DNA from: Candidatus Bathyarchaeota archaeon
Lineage (GTDB): Archaea > Thermoproteota > Bathyarchaeia > Bathyarchaeales > Bathycorpusculaceae
Length of the DNA: 64,000 nt
Direction of reading: 5' to 3'
NCBI GenBank assembly: GCA_963806535.1
Contig: CAWDYC010000003.1
Location: 128,001-192,000, forward strand
The notes under the pieces were generated by a model. That model was not told where the DNA came from and did not search any database. It saw only the letters and a list, made by a program, of their open reading frames with translations. The position numbers and the translations under genes are program-made. Shown here in pieces: positions 55,378-64,000 of this stretch; the stretch's first letter is position 1, and each line of letters begins with the position of its first letter.

Positions 55378-56517
55378 TTGCGAACTGACTCAGGATTATC
55401 AGAAAAAAATATGCTAACTCAACTGGTCGTATCTGTATCAATTGCGCTTCAATTTGCGGCGGCAATCTACGCGTTACTACTCATTAAGGTGACAGGTAAA
55501 CAATATGCTTGGATATTGATTTCAGTAGCCCTTTTCCTCATGGGAATAAGACGATTGATTCCATTATATTATTCGATTGTTACACCTGCTAGCTACCCTC
55601 TCGACCTAACCAATGAATTAATTGGACTTTCCCTATCTTTACTAATGCTGCTCGGGGTGATTGGAATTGGCCCAATATTTAACGAGCGTAAACAAATTCA
55701 GAAAAGACTCCATCAATACTCCCAAGAACTAGAAAAAACAGTTGAAGCCAGAACAATAGACTTAAAAGAAGCAAACTCCCGTTTATTAAGCGCTAAACGA
55801 CTTGCAACCATAGGTGAACTTGCTGGAATGGTTGGACATGACCTTCGCAATCCGTTAGCAGCTATAAAAAACGCTACCTATCTTTTGAAAAAGAAAAGTG
55901 CTAATATTTCTGAAACCGACGCTAAAGCGATGATTGAAATCATCGAGAAAGGAATTGACCATTCAGACAAGATTATTTGTAATCTTCAGGATTATTCTGG
56001 TGAAATTCATCTGAAACAAAAAGAAACCGGGCTTAGGAATTTGCTGATTCAGGCTTTGGCTAAGGTGAAAATCCCTGAAAAAATAACAATTATGAATAAT
56101 ATTCCAAGCGAAATCAGCATAAAAATAGATCCGGATAAGATAGAGTGCGTTTTCGTCAACATCAGCAAGAATGCGATAGACGCAATGCCCAACGGAGGAA
56201 CATTTATTGTAAAGTACAAACAGGTATTGGAAAACGTTGAAATCTCCTTTGCCGATACTGGCGTTGGCATTCCTGAAGAGATCCTGCCGAAGATTTTCAA
56301 TCCATTGTTCACTACGAAGGCACAGGGCATGGGCTTCGGATTAGCCATAAGTAAACGGATAGTTGAAGCTCACGGAGGAAAAATTATATTTGTAACCTCA
56401 AAAGGAGAAGGAACAACGTTCACGGTAACGTTGCCTTTGGAGTCTAAACTGAGAACTGAGGATGCAAAGGTCTGGGTAGACCAACCAGAACCCATGTCAG
56501 CAATTAATGACCAATGA
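55378..56517 (+). CDS. Membrane-bound sensor histidine kinase
   Basis: Three TM helices; HDLRNPL H-box; NAIDA, DTGVG, FTTK..GMGFGL boxes. Confidence 0.93.
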
Positions 56518-56690
56518 AAAACTGACCAACCCCAACTTCTTAAAGATACTCAGCTTAATTGCATTTTCCACTTCACTCGAAATTACTCCGTCCTGTGTGC
56601 CATATCTTTCAAATTGATGTTTGGATTTTTTGAATACAAACTCTTCTAAAAGTTGAGAAACAAAATTCTAATATTAACCAATGCAATTTC

Positions 56691-57062
56691 TTAATCCAAA
56701 CAGCTTAAATTGGGCATAACATAAGCAAACTGTGCGGGCCAATCGTCTAGCCTGGTTAGGACGTTGGCTTTACACGCCAAAGGTCGCCGGTTCAACTCCG
56801 GCTCGGCCCACTCCTGATTCCCAAAAGCAGCTTGATTTAAGGTTTTTTGATTTTGTTGACCGTTACTAAATTCCGTAACGCCGTTACAGTTTTCCGTAAC
56901 GTTTAACCCAGAGTTATCAAGCAAAGCAAGTGCATCGCGCATTTGTGCTTTTTTGGCTTTTATGCGATGACGCAATACACGACTATAATCTGCATCAAAG
57001 CTTTCAGGGGACTCTAAGAACTTGTAGTTCGTATTTTGCTTAGCATTTTTTCCATTCCTCAA
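56691..57062 (-). pseudogene. Putative N-terminal fragment of an SSV-type split integrase reading into tRNA-Val
   Basis: ORF runs open antisense through the tRNA (WAEPELNRRPLACKANVL); no catalytic motifs visible, so the call rests on geometry. Confidence 0.55.
56736..56810 (+). tRNA. tRNA-Val(TAC)
   Basis: GGGCCAA...TTGGC TTTACAC GCCAA...GGTTCAACTCC...TCGGCCCA cloverleaf with one A-C mismatch in the acceptor stem. Confidence 0.92.
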
Positions 57063-57565
57063 TTAATGCAAGAAGCTAATCGTCTATTTAACACCTTGAT
57101 TGTACGCATTTTTACGCTATTAACTTTTTACGGTGTTTAATCACCGTGCGGAAGCACACCGCCTTTTAACTCAGAGGTGAAAAGGCATCAGTTGGCTTCC
57201 CTGTTTAGGGGCCCATTTTGCTTTGTTGTTTCTACGACGTTCAAAAGCCGTGTAGAAAGCAACAGTGCCACTCAGGCTTGAATAGCAAAAAGACAAAACA
57301 ACTTGCCAAAACCTTATTTGTGCTAATAATCCTCAAAACGTAATGCTTATAAAGTAAAGTGTAGTGTACATATATTAAAACAAACGCTACCTATAGAGTT
57401 AAGTGTCCGCCGCTCTAAAAGTGCGCCTTGTTAATGAAACATGGAAGGCTTAAAAAATGTGCGGACACGAGAAATATACAACAAAAAAAAGTAAAATTTT
57501 TACAACTAAGCTGGTTTTTTCATCCAGATTAAATGACACCGAACTTTCATTTGGAATGACGCCGA

Positions 57566-58375
57566 ATGCAGAGCTCACCGCTGCGAAAAAGGAGGAACAA
57601 GAGCATGCATAATATTTGGATGCGTAAAATGGAAAACTTTGACAAGGGCTTGGTTAGCTTCCAAAAATTTGATTTAGGATTTATTGGCAATCAAGTTTCC
57701 GTTGCTATTAAGACCTACGATAAGGAAGGGCTTAATCATCAGGGACCACTTGAGAATATTATGGGTCTTGTAGCAGAATTGGCTTTTGAAGAATGGCTAA
57801 AAAGTTTTGGTGGAGTTCGTGGAAAGGATTACGAATGGAACGAACGCAGAGAGGATTATTGGAACAATGACCCAAGATCTTGGGATTTCAGGTTGCTCAA
57901 GAATGGTTTAACTTTTGAAATCGGAGCGGCAAAACCTAATCATCATTTGGCCGTAATGAAAGACGCAGCGCATAAAAAAGAATCTAATTATTTTGTTCAG
58001 GTAAGGATCATTTGGTTTAACTGTAAAATCAAGGTTTTAGATAAATGGTACGTTATTAACGCCAACTCATATACTCCCTTGGAAATAAAGGGCTCAGAAG
58101 AAATAAAATCCCTTGAAGCAGCCCAAGGAATAATCCAGAATGACACAATAGGCGAGGCGCAGATCTGTGGCTTCGATAAAGTCGGCACGATTGTTAAACA
58201 AGAGAATGGTTGGGTGTTTAGCAAAGCAGGCCAAAGGGAAACACCTTTCTCAAACGGCTTCATGAAGGAATTAAGCAATTTGTGCACAAGAAGCGATTTA
58301 GCAGCCATCATAAGGCGTGCCCTCGGTCTCCGCGAAGATAACAAAGAAAGTGAAGCACGACCTTACGGCATTTAA
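57566..58375 (+). CDS. Hypothetical protein, possible PD-(D/E)XK nuclease
   Basis: GLVAELAFEEW helix then WDFRL...TFEIGAAK, resembling a restriction-nuclease core with a displaced Lys. Confidence 0.5.
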   Translation: MQSSPLRKRRNKSMHNIWMRKMENFDKGLVSFQKFDLGFIGNQVSVAIKTYDKEGLNHQGPLENIMGLVAELAFEEWLKSFGGVRGKDYEWNERREDYWNNDPRSWDFRLLKNGLTFEIGAAKPNHHLAVMKDAAHKKESNYFVQVRIIWFNCKIKVLDKWYVINANSYTPLEIKGSEEIKSLEAAQGIIQNDTIGEAQICGFDKVGTIVKQENGWVFSKAGQRETPFSNGFMKELSNLCTRSDLAAIIRRALGLREDNKESEARPYGI

Positions 58376-58426
58376 AAGCCGTGTAAAACTGAGCGCGCCA
58401 TTTTGAAAAAATACAATCTACTGTTG

Positions 58427-58975
58427 CTAAAGTAATGTTGACAAATATGAGAAATTAGCCACGACCAAGGATATCACAAGTAAGGAAAGGAATAAGACTA
58501 AGAACGTTAAAGGGATCCAACGCTCAACCAAAGTAAGCTGTGGATATCTCGTTTTTTGGCTTCCCTGGTTTAAGTAATCCCATTCTTTGGCAAATGCAGC
58601 CACAGGCAATCTTTTTTCCATTTCGTGAATTACTTTGAATTTTGCTTCACTCAGTACTCTATAACATTTAATACTGTTATTCCAAATCAGACAAAAAACA
58701 ATTCCAGAAATAGACACGAGGGCAACCCACCAAAAGTACATGTTGCCAATTGGTTTGCTAACCTGAGATAATACACCAATTATCGTTATCAAAGCCGAAA
58801 CAAGGGTTAAATAAAACGTATTTGATTTGGAACGACGCTCAGAATTATTATCAGCCATTTCAACATATAATTTATACTGCTCAAGCAAATGGTCGTTAAA
58901 TTTCTCGCCATAAGTCTTTTCCTCAATTGGAAAAAGCTTAGTTTCTTTGATACCCGTCATCTCGTTGTTAGTCAT
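58427..58975 (-). CDS. Three-TM membrane protein (RipA-family-like), putative defence effector
   Basis: LLEQYKLYVEMAD..SERR...NTFY, two TMs, W...I..YR.L..AKF.VI.EME..LP...F..EW, third TM; 4 bp downstream of the TIR gene. Confidence 0.75.
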   Translation of the reverse strand: MTNNEMTGIKETKLFPIEEKTYGEKFNDHLLEQYKLYVEMADNNSERRSKSNTFYLTLVSALITIIGVLSQVSKPIGNMYFWWVALVSISGIVFCLIWNNSIKCYRVLSEAKFKVIHEMEKRLPVAAFAKEWDYLNQGSQKTRYPQLTLVERWIPLTFLVLFLSLLVISLVVANFSYLSTLL

Positions 58976-58979
58976 CTTT

Positions 58980-59462
58980 TCACGGAGAATTAATTTCTCG
59001 GTCTATATCTTTTAAATTCCAATTCAATATAGGTGCTTTGTTGTCTTTCATAGCTTCTGGAATAGCATGATTTTTATCACGATTAATTCTAACACCAATG
59101 ACCTTCTTTCCTTGTCTGTAGGCTTCATCTATTTCCCAGTTTACCGCATTCCTCTCTGCGGTCTTTTCACCTATCATAACCACAACTACGCTCGTCTGAG
59201 CAATTCTTTGTTTGCAGTTTGTCCTCCATTTTTCATCAAATGGTTCTTTAACTGAGTAGTCCCTGAACTCAAGGTCATAATTATCGTTCTTTGCCTGCGA
59301 GCGCAAAAGGTCTACTTGAGCTTCATCATCAACATGAAAACTTATGAAAACGTTACGAAGCCGAGCTCGTTCTGCCTCATCAACAGTCCTATCAAAAGCT
59401 GCCTCTGATTCTCCAACACCTTTTGATGAACCAAGGCTATACCCGAAACTACCCCCACCCAT
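58980..59462 (-). CDS. ThsB/MTH538-like TIR-domain protein with Gly-rich N-terminal tail
   Basis: RNVFISF, DYSVKEPF, VVVMIG..T and VNWEI (catalytic Glu); GGTGG SD supports a start at 59462 (MGGGSFGYSLG). Confidence 0.9.
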   Translation of the reverse strand: MGGGSFGYSLGSSKGVGESEAAFDRTVDEAERARLRNVFISFHVDDEAQVDLLRSQAKNDNYDLEFRDYSVKEPFDEKWRTNCKQRIAQTSVVVVMIGEKTAERNAVNWEIDEAYRQGKKVIGVRINRDKNHAIPEAMKDNKAPILNWNLKDIDREINSP

Positions 59463-59519
59463 GATTACCACCATTTTGTTAAAGTCATGTTATCGCTTTT
59501 AAGGTTTTTAAGACTTACC

Positions 59520-60158
59520 TTAGCGGTGATTTGAAGATTTTGAAAGACCATTTTCTGCAGCTATGCGTTCTTTGCAAGAAATACATTCTCCGCACGATTT
59601 CTCGGTCCCAGCATGGCAAGAGTAGGTCAAATTAAGCGGCAATCCATGTTTCCGAGCAAGCATTAAAGAATCAATCTTATCCAAATTTATCAAAGGAGCA
59701 AGAATTGTAATGTTTATGCCTAAGGCAAGGCTCAGCGTTTTTTGTGTTTGTGCCAAGAAATCCTTTGTTTGATCGGGAAATATTGGATTTGCTAAGATAC
59801 CCGTTGCAACAACGTAAGCTCCCTTATCATATCCATAGGCTGCGCCGAAGGTTAGGAAAAGTAGATTCCGCGTAGGAGTGAAGGCTTCCTTTTCAATATC
59901 CAAATCTTTGTTTGTTAGACCGCTTGGTACAATTCTGCCAAAGTCGTGTGCGTTTATTCTTTCGGGAGTTAACTTAAGATAATTACAGATTTTCTGACAG
60001 GATGACCATTCCTCTTCACAGGCAAGTTGTCCATAATCTACAAATAATGGAAAAACTCTGTGCCCTTTCATTTGTAATTGTTGCATAATAACAGAGGAGT
60101 CAACTCCACCCGAGCAAAGAACTACGACTCTCAATTCCTCTTCCTCATATAATTCCAA
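59520..60158 (-). CDS. queC: QueC-family protein (Cap9-like)
   Basis: SGGVDS PP-loop, DYGQ, P.RN, FPD and TYSC...CGECISC zinc site. Confidence 0.93.
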   Translation of the reverse strand: MELYEEEELRVVVLCSGGVDSSVIMQQLQMKGHRVFPLFVDYGQLACEEEWSSCQKICNYLKLTPERINAHDFGRIVPSGLTNKDLDIEKEAFTPTRNLLFLTFGAAYGYDKGAYVVATGILANPIFPDQTKDFLAQTQKTLSLALGINITILAPLINLDKIDSLMLARKHGLPLNLTYSCHAGTEKSCGECISCKERIAAENGLSKSSNHR

Positions 60159-60832
60159 ACAGCCATGTCAAATGTTGCCATTAGTAAGCCTCTCTCCTCG
60201 CACAGTTCTTTGAGAATATCCTCAAGCTCAAGGTATATTCTGGGAGTAACAGATTTTATCTGCAGTCCATTAAGCGCGTTAATCTTTGTCAGAAATGAAA
60301 TAATGTGTGTGTCAATTATTGCGAGTTTTTTAGAATAACCTATATTTCTCAAAAAATGAGATGCTTCCTTAAGACCAATTCCAGAAATATTCTTAATTAG
60401 TGATGATCTTGCATCTTCCTCTGAACTAGAATGAGCCAAAACGCAATGCAACCATGTTTCCTCAGAAGATATGATTGTTGCTGACTTTGTAATATTTTTG
60501 GAGCGAACATTAGGGAAACGATATTTTCTTAGTTCACCATCGGTTTTCTTGGGAAAATAAATTGGCTTTGAAAGCTCTTTAGCAATTATCTTGTCGGCTA
60601 AAGGATTATCAGCTATCCATTCAACGGACAGATAGCCTCGTCTTATCAAATGCCTTACTGCTGAAAAAGCAAGCTCATATGGAACATTACTTGACAAGAT
60701 ACAAAGACATAGTTCATGCCACAAATCAGTTTCTGTCATAAGGTCCCATTTTCGATTTTCAAAGTGGAGAGCTGGTATTGTTGAGTATTCTAACAAAACG
60801 CCGTTAAATGTTTCATTATCTGCAATGAGCAT
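60131..60832 (-). CDS. N-glycosylase/DNA lyase, OGG-like HhH protein (Cap11-like)
   Basis: ELCLCILSS, YRFPN, GIGLKEASHFLRNIG and AIIDTHI, with catalytic Lys and Asp present. Confidence 0.9.
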   Translation of the reverse strand: MLIADNETFNGVLLEYSTIPALHFENRKWDLMTETDLWHELCLCILSSNVPYELAFSAVRHLIRRGYLSVEWIADNPLADKIIAKELSKPIYFPKKTDGELRKYRFPNVRSKNITKSATIISSEETWLHCVLAHSSSEEDARSSLIKNISGIGLKEASHFLRNIGYSKKLAIIDTHIISFLTKINALNGLQIKSVTPRIYLELEDILKELCEERGLLMATFDMAVWNYMRKRN

Positions 60833-60946
60833 TGGTTGAATCTCGGTTTTTATCTTTACATTTAGAATGCGCTAAAAATATATATCCTTAACTATTTTTC
60901 ATTTAATTAATTTTGATCACTTTTTATTGCATTATAGATAAATATT

Positions 60947-61957
60947 CTAAAATTTATCTATTCTATTAAGAATATCGTCACCAATTTGAACCTTCAGAGA
61001 AGCACGTAAATTGTCATAACGTATCATATTCTGCATTTTGACAACAAAGTCTTGATAATATAGCAGATTATGCAATAAAGCCCTGTCTAAATAGGCTGAT
61101 GATGCCAATTTAGGATTGCTGCAGATTCTACATTTGCAATTAATCAAATCAAGATGTGAAAAATCTTTTATTGTGTCGTCTCCGGGGTCCAAAATATGTT
61201 CGATCCAATCTAAGCTGTCGAAACTGTCAGAACCGCAATACGCATAAATTAACATTGAAATAGGGTTTCCACAACCTAAGACATGTAAAAGAAACCTTTC
61301 ATCACTTTTGTCAAGAATGTGTCTGATTTCAGTAAGAGTTTCCGCTCTTTCCAAAATGCCTTTACCGCAATCCCTTTCAGAAACAGCAATACCACAACAC
61401 AAACTGGAATACTCATCAATAAAATCACTAACTAATGCCAATTGATGGTCAACTGATTTTCCATGAAGGATCGGCAGAAAAATATTTCCACCACAGAAGG
61501 CTGATGATTCAACCGCTGCTTGCACTACATTTTCTTGGTATTGTTTAACGTTCTTGGTATTTTCCGCGGTTGGAAGAATATCGAAGCCGGTAAAGATATC
61601 CATCGTGACCTGAGAAATAACGCTTTTGTATGCTTTCATATCCCAAGTTGGATCATTCTTATTATCGCTCTCAAATACGCCGCTATCCAAAAGTAAAAAG
61701 CCTTGTTTTCTAAATTCAGCGATGCTTTGCTTAAGTTTTTCTTTTTCTTCGAGTTTGTTAATATCATAAGCTGAAAGCAATAATCGCGGATACTTATTAT
61801 GTTTTAGCATGTAAAAAAGTTCAGTCAAAGAAAATCGGTTTTTAGTACTGGACAACGATGGAAAATAGGTTGGAGTATTGAAGACCTTATTTTCAAATTT
61901 TATCTCACAAATCCTTGCAAGTTTCCCATTTTTATGTTGTATTGTTGCTTTATTCAA
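60947..61957 (-). CDS. tRNA-guanine transglycosylase-like protein (Cap10-like)
   Basis: TPTYFP, LLDSG, FDI, ILHG, HVLG, DSFDS and CKCRIC...HN zinc site. Confidence 0.87.
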   Translation of the reverse strand: MNKATIQHKNGKLARICEIKFENKVFNTPTYFPSLSSTKNRFSLTELFYMLKHNKYPRLLLSAYDINKLEEKEKLKQSIAEFRKQGFLLLDSGVFESDNKNDPTWDMKAYKSVISQVTMDIFTGFDILPTAENTKNVKQYQENVVQAAVESSAFCGGNIFLPILHGKSVDHQLALVSDFIDEYSSLCCGIAVSERDCGKGILERAETLTEIRHILDKSDERFLLHVLGCGNPISMLIYAYCGSDSFDSLDWIEHILDPGDDTIKDFSHLDLINCKCRICSNPKLASSAYLDRALLHNLLYYQDFVVKMQNMIRYDNLRASLKVQIGDDILNRIDKF

Positions 61958-62106
61958 CTAAGGCACTCCAGATCCTTATTTCAATAGTTCCTATTTGTAG
62001 GGTTATATTATAAAGAATTAACTACTAAATAGAATTATACAAAGAAACTTACCTTGAAAAGTTAGAAATAAATGATTTACTAAAGGATAGTCTGTGTGGA
62101 AGACAT

Positions 62107-62580
62107 TTGAAGAGGCTAACTTTAAGCGTAGCTCAAACAGCAATTTTCGCTTCTATTTATGCTGTTTCATCGATTTTGCTTGGGCCACTGGGATATTCAT
62201 GGATTCAGTTACGGATTGGAGAAGCCTTGACTCCCCTGCCGCTACTTTTTGGAATTCCTGCAATGGCTGGATTAACCATCGGGTGTTTTGTTACCAATTT
62301 AACGAGCCCAGTGGGTTTGCCTGACATGGTTTTCGGGCCCTTACTGACTCTAATTGCCGCATTTCTTTCTTGGAAATTAACATTTGGCAAACGCATTTTA
62401 GCTTGTTTATATCCGGTTATCATAAATGCAATAGGCGTAAGTGCCTATCTTTCATCTTTCTATGGCGTCCCATACTTGGTCACCGTTTTGACCGTTGGCG
62501 CTGGAGAGTTTGTTGCTGCAGTTATTATTGGATATCCAACATTATTGGCGTTAAGAAAATTTATGGGTAATAAAAAGTAG
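62107..62580 (+). CDS. queT: QueT-family queuosine-precursor transporter
   Basis: A.FA.IY, IQLRIGEAL..LP, GLTIGC..TN, DMVFG, PVIINA and GE motifs. Confidence 0.87.
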   Translation: MKRLTLSVAQTAIFASIYAVSSILLGPLGYSWIQLRIGEALTPLPLLFGIPAMAGLTIGCFVTNLTSPVGLPDMVFGPLLTLIAAFLSWKLTFGKRILACLYPVIINAIGVSAYLSSFYGVPYLVTVLTVGAGEFVAAVIIGYPTLLALRKFMGNKK

Positions 62581-62712
62581 AGATTCTTTTGTTTCGTCGT
62601 GACTTTACTCAGGCCTCAAATCCCTCGCTCACTCAATGAGGGTACGTCATAGTGAGTTGTGCACGTGATTGAACACCGTGCAAAAGCGTAGAGCCGTGAG
62701 CTTTGGAGCCAT

Positions 62713-63236
62713 CTATGAAATCTGACTAATACATTCCTGCAACAGTTGCCGATAAGTTGCTTGCCAACCGTTTGAAGGGAATGGTATAGATATTTTGTTC
62801 AGTAATCTCTCGCCAAAACCGGCTTCTTCAAGTGCAAGCTTGACTGGGGCAAATAAATTATTTTTCAAAATAATGATTCTTTCTGGCTGAAGGCTTCTAA
62901 TATCATTTACAAGCCTTGGAATTTGATCTTTTAGAACTCTGTTTTTTCCGCAATAGGCAACTTGTTGACTGGTCTATAGCTGGCATCTATCAAGAAGAAT
63001 CCTCTTGATTGGAACTCTTTTAGCTGGGTGTTTTTGTCAGTGCCGACAGGTAATTTGCCACAAGGAATTTTCAATGCTTTCATTGTTTCCCTGAATAAAC
63101 AGCCACGACCGGTTGCTGACTCAAAATAAAAGTATCCGCCGCCTTCGGGTGGTGACTCGCCAATAAGAAGGAATTCAATGTCTTTGCCTATTCGTCGTGG
63201 GTCATATTTGTCCCTTGCTTCAATATAGTCTTGCAT
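62713..63236 (-). CDS. Uracil-DNA-glycosylase-like superfamily protein, frameshifted at about 62935
   Basis: LLIGESPP..GYFY and GFFLID; second frame gives L.PERIII...IPFPSNGW. Confidence 0.65.
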
Positions 63237-63625
63237 GTCAACAGCTACGGCTTCTGATTTATTAGATTTAGCGGATAAATACGATGATTCTTTGTCGCCA
63301 ACTTGTTTAATCTTAATAGCCTATGTACTTGTACGGTGATTGAACACCGTGAAGAAGCATAGGCCGTAGTAAAAAGCGGAGATTAGCATTAACCGATCAA
63401 GTCAAACATATTTGAAGCCTAATATGTTTCAGGGAGCTTGCATTAGCACCTTAAAGCACTGTTGTGTTTCTGTACGGTGTTCAAACACCGTGGCTAAACA
63501 TAGGCTAAGGACAAAGGCGACGGAAGACCAAGCATGGTCGAATCCTACTTAAGCTATGATCCAGTTGAACTGCTAAAATATTCGACCGGCTTTCTCGACC
63601 GAAAAAATCAAAATGAGTCATTTTT

Positions 63626-63829
63626 TTACTTATGCCAGAGCCTACTTAATAGATAGATTACAGCGGTAGCTGCAAGCAGCACTGGAACTATGAACACATT
63701 AGCTTCCATCCACTGCCAAATTGGTCCCGGTAACCCAAACATACCTATGCCATAACCAGCTAAGACTACAATCCAAACAAAACTATACAGGGCGATTACT
63801 GCAATCCATACCTTCATGAGCTTACGCAT
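63626..63829 (-). CDS. Small two-TM membrane protein
   Basis: MRKLMKVWIAVIAL... hydrophobic pair; start is probably internal to the tracked ORF. Confidence 0.55.
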   Translation of the reverse strand: MRKLMKVWIAVIALYSFVWIVVLAGYGIGMFGLPGPIWQWMEANVFIVPVLLAATAVIYLLSRLWHK

Positions 63830-63917
63830 TTTCTCACTTTTGAAACCACTTATAATCCATAGGTTATCCATCAACCACATAAAAGCTTTTGACTTATCCG
63901 TGCAAGAGGACACAAGG

Positions 63918-64000
63918 TTGCCGAAGCGATATGTTAACATAAAATTGCCTGTTGAGCTTGCAGACGAAGTTGACAAAATCGTGGATAAGAAGCTTCTGGG
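63918..64000 (+). CDS. Ribbon-helix-helix (CopG-like) protein, truncated by the window edge
   Basis: Manual translation MPKRYVNIKLPVELADEVDKIVDKKLLG. Confidence 0.7.
   Translation, partial: MPKRYVNIKLPVELADEVDKIVDKKLL

Follow-up and report, generated by a model that had tools for sequence, protein, structure and literature searches.

A probable Thoeris-type operon in a Bathyarchaeota genome pairing a glycine-tailed TIR protein with Cap9, Cap10, and Cap11 homologues

We analyzed a 64,000-nt stretch of a contig from a Candidatus Bathyarchaeota archaeon (CAWDYC010000003.1, positions 128,001 to 192,000; hereafter the window), in which five minus-strand genes encode, in order, Cap10 (TGT-like), Cap11 (OGG-like), Cap9 (QueC-like), a ThsB-type TIR protein, and an 8xMP protein. 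We conclude that these genes probably form a Thoeris-type (TIR-signalling) antiviral operon which carries the Cap9/Cap10/Cap11 helper set of the cyclic oligonucleotide-based antiphage signalling system (CBASS) of type IV, and in which Cap9 would deazaguanylate Gly2 of the TIR protein and Cap10 would bind the tagged tail. The features of the operon, including those around the TIR start, are as follows.

60947..61957, minus strand: Cap10, a TGT-like transglycosylase with the catalytic domain only, 336 aa (Pfam TGT 1.8e-09; PADLOC TGT 4.3e-23)
60131..60832, minus strand: Cap11, an Ogg-type HhH glycosylase, 233 aa (Pfam Ogg-HhH 7.8e-36)
59520..60158, minus strand: Cap9, a QueC-like ATP-dependent ligase, longest open reading frame (ORF) 212 aa (Pfam QueC 1.4e-38; PADLOC QueC 5.3e-35)
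59472..59474, minus strand: upstream in-frame ATG giving the MVVI(M) reading, judged not to be the start and without Shine-Dalgarno (SD)-like sequence 5' of it
59468..59472, minus strand: SD-like GGTGG, followed by the spacer TAATC (5 nt) and then ATG 59462
59412..59462, minus strand: Gly/Ser-rich tail MGGGSFGYSLGSSKGVG of the TIR protein, with Gly2 as the candidate deazaguanylation acceptor
59349..59411, minus strand: conserved linker (ESEAAFDRTVDEAERARLRNV region) from the tail to the TIR fold, with E20, F23, and E29 nearly invariant in 50 homologues
58980..59348, minus strand: ThsB-type TIR domain and C-terminus (Pfam ThsB_TIR 7.8e-20; PADLOC ThsB 9.1e-19)
58427..58975, minus strand: 8xMP-family membrane protein, 182 aa (Pfam PF24838 5.2e-38), starting 4 nt past the TIR stop

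Start and N-terminal tail of the TIR protein

In the TIR start region the minus strand reads ATGGTGGTAATC ATG GGT GGG GGT. Translation from ATG 59462 gives a protein of 160 aa whose N-terminus, MGGGSFGYSLGSSKGVG, counts 7 Gly and 4 Ser among its 17 residues and whose N-terminal peptide, if unmodified, would be GGGSFGYSLGSSK. The proposal of an earlier note on this DNA, that the TIR protein starts MGGGSFG at 59462 behind a GGTGG SD-like site, was borne out, with a spacer of 5 nt. The database gene call for the window TIR (P0001) is the 160-aa form, and exactly this length was found in 51 of the 120 best TIR homologues. Among these 120, a [MLV][GSA][GSA] start was present in 81; 26 more are longer gene calls that contain a site of this kind within the first 50 residues, often L-GGG or V-GGG, that is, TTG or GTG starts read through; and 13 have neither, 7 of which still begin M-G or L-G. 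In six more distant relatives (L002, L008, L017, L019, L023, and L024) a stop codon lies 0–3 codons 5' of the M-G-G start, so that an upstream start is impossible there. The inferred start codons of 87 non-identical tail-bearing loci (57 ATG, 23 TTG, and 7 GTG) all fell at the homologous position, and 48 of these loci (55%) have an SD-like 4-mer at −16 to −3 relative to that codon, compared with 14% for 14-mers drawn at random from them. Of the 28,429 candidate start positions that ORFs of at least 100 aa offer in the same genome, 43 (about 0.15%) give M[GS]G[GS]; a single instance is thus unremarkable, and it is the conservation that matters. No other operon protein begins with Gly, as judged from the translated ORFs.

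If translation began instead at ATG 59474 (MVVIMGGG...), the N-terminal Gly would not be exposed and the Gly run would be a mere flexible linker. This start gives the longest ORF, and P0002 (MVIAM) and L003 (MGDCM) share with the window an ATG at this distance of four codons, although these three nearest sequences are the only ones to do so; in the nearest relatives the codon and the GGTG of the SD overlap. The earlier note had named the upstream Met as a threat to its proposal, and the evidence goes against it: 59474 has no SD-like sequence, whereas 59462 is preceded by GGTGG and 5 nt; distant homologues have stops directly 5' of the M-G-G start; and the 87 homologous, SD-enriched starts and the shared 160-aa length, which is also that of the database gene call, agree on the downstream codon. 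We therefore judged ATG 59462 to be the TIR start, with a small residual doubt, and consider translation from 59474 very improbable.

The ThsB_TIR domain of Pfam covers residues 43–134 of the 164-aa reading and begins at residue 39 of the 160-aa protein, which leaves a 38-residue extension ahead of it. The alignment of solved ThsB-type TIRs begins only at profile position 35–36, and tail-less TIR homologues start directly at the core. The TIR profile matches the solved TIR/ThsB chains 8fz9, 8wcf, 6lhy, and 9b7d, and E110 and E113 are invariant in the homologue alignment. The ESEAAFDRTVDEAERARLRNV linker may be a docking helix. In 73 Cap9-linked tails, position 2 was Gly in 59, Ser in 10, and Ala in 4; position 3 was Gly in 63, Ala in 6, and Ser in 4; position 4 was Gly in 56 and Ser in 12; and Tyr or Phe was common at positions 7–8. 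By the methionine aminopeptidase rule, removal of Met1 would expose Gly2 of the window TIR. The window tail MGGGSF fits positions 1–4 of the motif M(G/S)G(G/S)GG described for CdnD, the CD-NTase that is tagged in type IV CBASS.

Some TIR relatives have unusual N-termini. The tails of Thermoplasmata type (L010, L016, L019, L116, L122, and L124) are extreme glycine runs such as MGGSGGGGGYGGGG and MGGGGGGGGSGGG, and in L124, where about 20 Gly follow one another, there is no clear start codon. In L097:868-1305, L098:1853-2290, and P0121, the place of the expected Gly tail is taken by part of an N6-adenine methylase, joined in frame to the TIR; because there is no Cap9 nearby, this fusion looks like a deletion remnant. 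A search for longer (fused) TIR relatives gave a single protein (P0121, its tail lost) and no fusion to TGT or QueC. A second ThsB_TIR match, weak and partial (28.7 bits), lies on the same contig outside the window (G000:C3:492802-492963, minus strand).

Helper proteins and their proposed action

The true start of Cap9 is probably TTG 60134 rather than TTG 60158, because homologues begin M-[RK]-x-V-V-L-S-S-G-G. TTG 60134 follows GAGGAAGAGG and overlaps the Cap11 stop as TTGA, and in L003 and L025 a stop codon lies inside the longer Cap9 reading. The best solved relative of the window protein is Cap9 itself (9nto_B, 3.5e-20), with QueC 3bl5 behind it (2.7e-14). The published Cap9 signature consists of an SGGxDS PP-loop, Y/FxQ(x)5E, RN, Y/FxD, and a zinc-binding Cys cluster, as described in PMC13082051, and all of these elements were found in the window protein; across 54 relatives there is no variation in S16-G-G-x-D20-S21 (SGGxDS), Y42, E50, PxRN (R97-N98), D129, K161, or C181/C189/C192/C195.

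For the TGT-like protein, the only solved relative found by single sequence was Cap10 9ntn_A (E 4.8e-05), whose H226 and D248 align with H225 and D247 of the window protein. These two residues and the C-x-C-x2-C...H zinc site (C274/C276/C279/H296) are invariant in 12 relatives; a counterpart of D73, the base-recognition Asp of Rhizobiales Cap10, could not be mapped with confidence in window Cap10. A profile of window-type Cap10 proteins matched ArcTGT (4.5e-16) and Cap10 (1.6e-13) about equally. The same genome encodes its own 541-aa ArcTGT, to which window Cap10 is 23% identical and whose C-terminal domains are missing from the 336-aa protein, as well as QueD, another QueT, and a housekeeping QueC, which scored 214.9 bits compared with 132.6 for window Cap9 and is 29% identical to it. 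To judge from these sequence comparisons, window Cap9 and Cap10 are second, diverged copies and not housekeeping genes. Among solved structures, Cap11 is closest to the archaeal N-glycosylase/DNA lyase 3fhg (E 1.4e-20). The 8xMP protein, with hydropathy peaks at residues 54–72, 79–97, and 154–172 (three hydrophobic segments), is the predicted effector; a literature search found nothing relevant on the 8xMP/PF24838 family. By Pfam, there was no CD-NTase family in any operon protein, and neither a QatA ATPase nor a QatD TatD-like nuclease family in the operon or its neighbours.

The sequence data establish the start codon, the conservation of the tail and of the gene order, and the integrity of the catalytic motifs. 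Arguing by homology for the covalent tag, its site, the roles of Cap10 and Cap11, the signal molecule, and the action of the effector, we propose the following course of events. The TIR protein would be made from ATG 59462 and methionine aminopeptidase would strip Met1. QueC-like Cap9 would then adenylate 7-carboxy-7-deazaguanine, supplied by the host's own pathway or by uptake via the linked QueT, and join the base to the free amine of Gly2. TGT-like Cap10, with its His/Asp pair and zinc site intact, would take the tagged tail into its base pocket and either restrain the TIR protein or transfer it onto a target, and Ogg-like Cap11 would probably act on the same linkage or target. On infection, an NAD-derived signal made by the TIR protein would open the 8xMP membrane effector and the cell would be stopped.

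The precedent for these steps comes from type IV CBASS, where, according to Wassarman et al. (2025; 10.1101/2025.04.06.647259), Cap9 joins 7-carboxy-7-deazaguanine to Gly2 of CdnD and Cap10 binds the tagged tail. The same work describes the acceptor tail GGSGGSFGSGFDPR (peptide GGSGGSFGSGF, motif M(G/S)G(G/S)GG), the loss of defence upon deletion of the CdnD tail or a G2D change, and the catalytic H226/D248 pair of Cap10, in which mutation of D248 abolishes defence. For QatB, an unstructured N-terminus with Gly2 and an MGTS start is described as essential (PMC13279940). A review (PMC13434031) treats the subject in CBASS only.

Distribution of the tail and its partners, and competing explanations

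Loci for comparison were found through an alignment of 50 TIR homologues; the sample comprised 129 loci, 49 on contigs of genomes and 80 on those of metagenomes, and each locus was searched with the five proteins of the window and extra queries. The TIR core motif was present in 127 loci, and 119 were left after dropping those with identical N-terminal 70 residues, a set in which near-duplicates remain. A locus was considered evaluable if its sequence extended 800 bp or more upstream of the inferred start (n = 95), and a tail was defined as a start codon and two residues from G, S, or A located 25–80 residues before the TIR core. When Cap9 was in the locus, 62 of 64 evaluable loci had the tail and none was tail-less; the other two have variant tails (MTAGGGGG in L020 and a poly-Gly run in L124). 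When there was no Cap9 but a TGT-like protein, which we call X, the tail was present in 9 loci and missing from none, with 2 classed as other (L009 and L031). With neither Cap9 nor X, no locus had the tail, 19 were tail-less, and 1 was classed as other (L043); all 19 tail-less TIRs, therefore, have neither neighbour. The earlier note had asked whether QueC-free homologues have the Gly tail just as often; they do not (9 of 31, compared with 62 of 64), yet the tail is not absent from them.

Gene order was also conserved. Cap10, Cap9, and the TIR gene follow one another on one strand in 53 of 54 Cap9+Cap10 loci, and Cap11 is present in 47 of these 54 related loci. Of the 58 Cap9-linked loci with enough downstream DNA, 48 have 8xMP after the TIR gene; in the remaining 10 the slot holds SLATT in 6, and no effector family was identified in 4. 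Because either 8xMP or SLATT can occupy the slot, the tailed TIR and its helpers pair with varied membrane effectors, like Thoeris modules. Related loci were seen in Bathyarchaeia, Thermoplasmata, Nitrososphaeria, methanogens, and others, and the spread is mainly archaeal. In the SLATT loci (L119, L121, L123, L128, L130, and L132) the two-transmembrane effector is encoded on the opposite strand and is accompanied, in most of them, by a further TIR that lacks the tail; such an additional TIR also follows in L115.

In a maximum-likelihood tree built rapidly from 115 TIR cores (125 columns, with many forks unresolved), the tail-less, helper-less TIRs of Nitrosopumilus and Dehalococcoidia fell among the Cap9-linked tailed TIRs, with a support of 97 in the Shimodaira-Hasegawa-like approximate likelihood ratio test (SH-aLRT). 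At least there, then, gain or loss affected the tail and the helpers jointly.

Besides the upstream ATG kept in the nearest sequences, several observations weigh against modification of the TIR tail by Cap9. The locus counts are phylogenetically clustered and hold only 2 independent contrasts, both concordant (sign test p 0.5), so that the counts cannot be read as statistics. Tail positions 5–6 are S and F in the window, compared with GG in the CBASS motif, and a search of the PDB with the tail only (first 40 residues) found no CdnD, the only match being a de novo designed repeat protein (E 0.12). An MGGG tail, with the motif MGGGxRGxRxxY, occurs in 9 of the 31 evaluable QueC-free loci, 9 of 9 beside a TGT-like protein. 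Finally, in two of three genomes with such loci that were searched, both of them metagenome-assembled genomes, there were only partial PP-loop matches and no full-length QueC.

These QueC-free tailed loci (L011:6180-7959, L013:3062-4922, L015:6184-7970, L018:6166-7954, L021-L024, and L027:6014-7984) have no QueC within 7 kb, and their TIRs form a clade (10 tree rows, SH-aLRT 86). The operon consists of the TGT-like protein, the MGGG-tailed TIR, and 8xMP, without QueC and OGG. Protein X has 270–350 aa and is encoded directly upstream of the TIR gene on the same strand. An hhalign comparison of 11 X sequences with 12 of Cap10 gave a probability of 94% and an E of 1.4e-07 over 212 columns, and a Pfam TGT match was obtained for 1 of 11 (E 0.0023). 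In the hhalign alignment X has no equivalents of Cap10 H225 and D247 and ends ahead of the zinc site; X is apparently an inactive, remote relative of TGT and Cap10. Since these QueC-free loci keep the MGGG tail, a Gly tail can exist without QueC, and in the sequences compared the association of the tail with a TGT-fold partner is at least as close as that with QueC. The effector slot of L024 and L031 holds a caspase-family protease and a second TIR in place of 8xMP. The third genome searched, that of Methanosarcina hadiensis (L027), contains a housekeeping QueC and a 191-aa QueC-like frame, 520 kb away; the frame (G001 C1:1933896-1934417) has a Cap9-like length.

The QueC-free operons speak for an account without any covalent tag, in which the Gly tail would only dock onto the TGT-fold partner or act as an autoinhibitory peptide for it, and Cap9 would make a free 7-deazaguanine ligand for Cap10 or modify some other thing. 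All 9 evaluable tailed loci of this kind have their MGGG tail beside a protein lacking the catalytic His/Asp, two of the three genomes searched gave no full QueC match, and in type IV CBASS Cap10 is described as keeping CdnD inactive in conformation (10.1101/2025.04.06.647259). On the other side, the whole Cap9 catalytic core is invariant wherever Cap9 is present; window Cap9 is nearer to the solved Cap9 than to QueC, and a housekeeping QueC is already there for free-base synthesis; the same kind of tail is described as an acceptor or as essential in CBASS and Qat; and the tails of the QueC-free clade carry an extra motif (R6, G7, R9, and Y12) which suggests a different, non-ancestral binding mode. 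On balance we consider a tail with no covalent tag unlikely.

A related possibility is that the conserved partner of the tail is the TGT-fold pocket, the tail having been at first a plug held by a TGT-like sensor and deazaguanylation by Cap9 a later add-on that strengthens or gates the hold. The armed state of the TIR protein would then be set by the pool of 7-deazaguanine precursors, and the pool itself would be the infection signal. Viruses that make or consume 7-deazaguanine bases would, if this were true, disturb the pool, and a dedicated QueT is present in a third of the loci. We offer this only tentatively and regard it as rather doubtful.

It is also conceivable that QueC, TGT, and OGG serve 7-deazaguanine modification or repair of nucleic acids, as a Dpd-like module or a second archaeosine pathway, and merely lie beside an independent Thoeris pair of TIR and 8xMP. 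Such pairs stand alone in 13 of the 19 tail-less loci, Cap10 retains the full set of TGT catalytic and zinc residues with a profile match slightly better to ArcTGT than to Cap10, and a QueT transporter is linked to the locus. But the tail co-varies with the helper genes, whose order and strand are fixed in the 53 of 54 loci noted above; Cap10 is without the C-terminal domains of ArcTGT (336 versus 541 aa); the Cap11 stop overlaps the likely Cap9 start; and the helper trio also occurs with SLATT-type effectors, always beside a tailed TIR. This explanation is, in our view, improbable.

We therefore return to deazaguanylation of the TIR tail by Cap9 as the probable reading. The earlier suggestion that the TIR protein is the substrate of the adjacent QueC-family enzyme finds support in the start codon, the tail motif, the Cap9 core, the Cap10 His/Asp pair, and the contrast of 62 of 64 with 0 of 19; what did not hold is any uniqueness of the tail to QueC, given the 9 of 31 QueC-free loci. 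If this reading is true, protein deazaguanylation would control two unrelated classes of immune signalling enzymes, CD-NTases and TIRs, and would be common in archaea. The loci offer natural controls in the form of a tailed TIR with Cap9/10/11, a tailed TIR with only a dead TGT-like partner, and a tail-less TIR with the same effector.

Flanking DNA and relation to known systems

Upstream of the operon and divergent from Cap10 is a transporter gene, as follows.

62107..62580, plus strand: QueT-family transporter paralogue (Pfam QueT 1.4e-35)

A second QueT adjoins the housekeeping QueC on contig C5. Of the 44 non-redundant loci with 800 bp or more of sequence upstream of Cap10, 14 contain a QueT gene; it lies immediately upstream of Cap10 in divergent orientation in 13 of these and downstream of the TIR gene in L114. 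This linked paralogue hints at the source of the deazaguanine substrate. A literature search found no paper linking QueT with Cap9, and an Rfam search of 56000–64000 found only tRNA, with no preQ1 riboswitch 5' of QueT.

Palindromic intergenic repeats of about 25–30 nt (TACGGTG..n..CACCGTG) are located at 57129-57159, 57233-57257, 58364-58388, 62665-62691, 63332-63362, and 63473-63503; they bracket the module, with one copy shortly after the stop of 8xMP and another shortly after that of QueT, and may be terminators or elements resembling repetitive extragenic palindromes (REP). A tRNA-Val gene (56736-56811, plus strand) lies 1.6 kb from the operon end, and no direct repeat derived from it and no attachment-site repeat was seen. 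Between this gene and the operon is a 269-aa ORF (57566-58375, plus strand) with no Pfam match and no relative in the 129 loci. The GC content of the kilobases containing Cap10 and Cap11 is 0.35, slightly under that of the surroundings (0.39–0.47).

The extension of this modification to TIR enzymes, which the earlier note put forward, is a reasonable reading of the locus but not a new one. Yirmiya et al. (bioRxiv, Dec 2025; 10.64898/2025.12.03.692087) report that some Thoeris operons carry cap9, cap10, and cap11, and in their Pseudomonadales example AlphaFold 3 placed ThsB on Cap10 (interface predicted TM score 0.79) and on Cap9 (0.62), as for CdnD. The window operon resembles the operons of that preprint in having a ThsB-type TIR and an effector together with cap9, cap10, and cap11; the available text of the preprint mentions no N-terminal glycine motif on ThsB, no 8xMP effector, no QueT link, and no mainly archaeal spread. 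A search of the literature, judged from titles and the openings of abstracts, found no experimental test of a deazaguanylated Thoeris TIR, and among papers that treat Cap9, Cap10, and TIR together the preprint was the only relevant one. With the concept itself already published as a prediction, the value of the present analysis is in documentation and comparative detail.

The stand-alone pairs of TIR and 8xMP (Nitrosopumilus, Dehalococcoidia, and others, L028-L042) share with the window a homologous TIR core and the same adjacent effector family, but they have no N-terminal extension (start M-x-RNVFISF) and no Cap9/10/11. In the QueC-free archaeal operons the TIR is homologous and starts MGGG, the gene immediately upstream is of the TGT fold, and the effector is the same (8xMP, or a caspase in some); they differ from the window in having no QueC or OGG, a remote TGT-like protein without the H/D pair and the zinc-binding C-terminus, and the tail MGGGxRGxRxxY. 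QatABCD, in its published descriptions, likewise combines a QueC-family enzyme with a partner whose N-terminus has Gly2, and the window tail resembles the MGTS start of QatB; it differs in that the window operon has no QatA or QatD and its Cap9 core is canonical, whereas QatC has a remodelled active site and long extensions. Type IV CBASS differs from the window in its signalling enzyme, a CD-NTase rather than a TIR, and in its tail, which goes on with G-G where that of the window goes on with S-F-G-Y; window Cap10, moreover, is about as close to ArcTGT as to the Rhizobiales Cap10 of type IV CBASS. What the two have in common is the same helper trio (Cap11 being optional in CBASS), Cap9 and Cap10 as the nearest solved relatives, an M-G-G-G/S start on an N-terminal extension, and a membrane effector.

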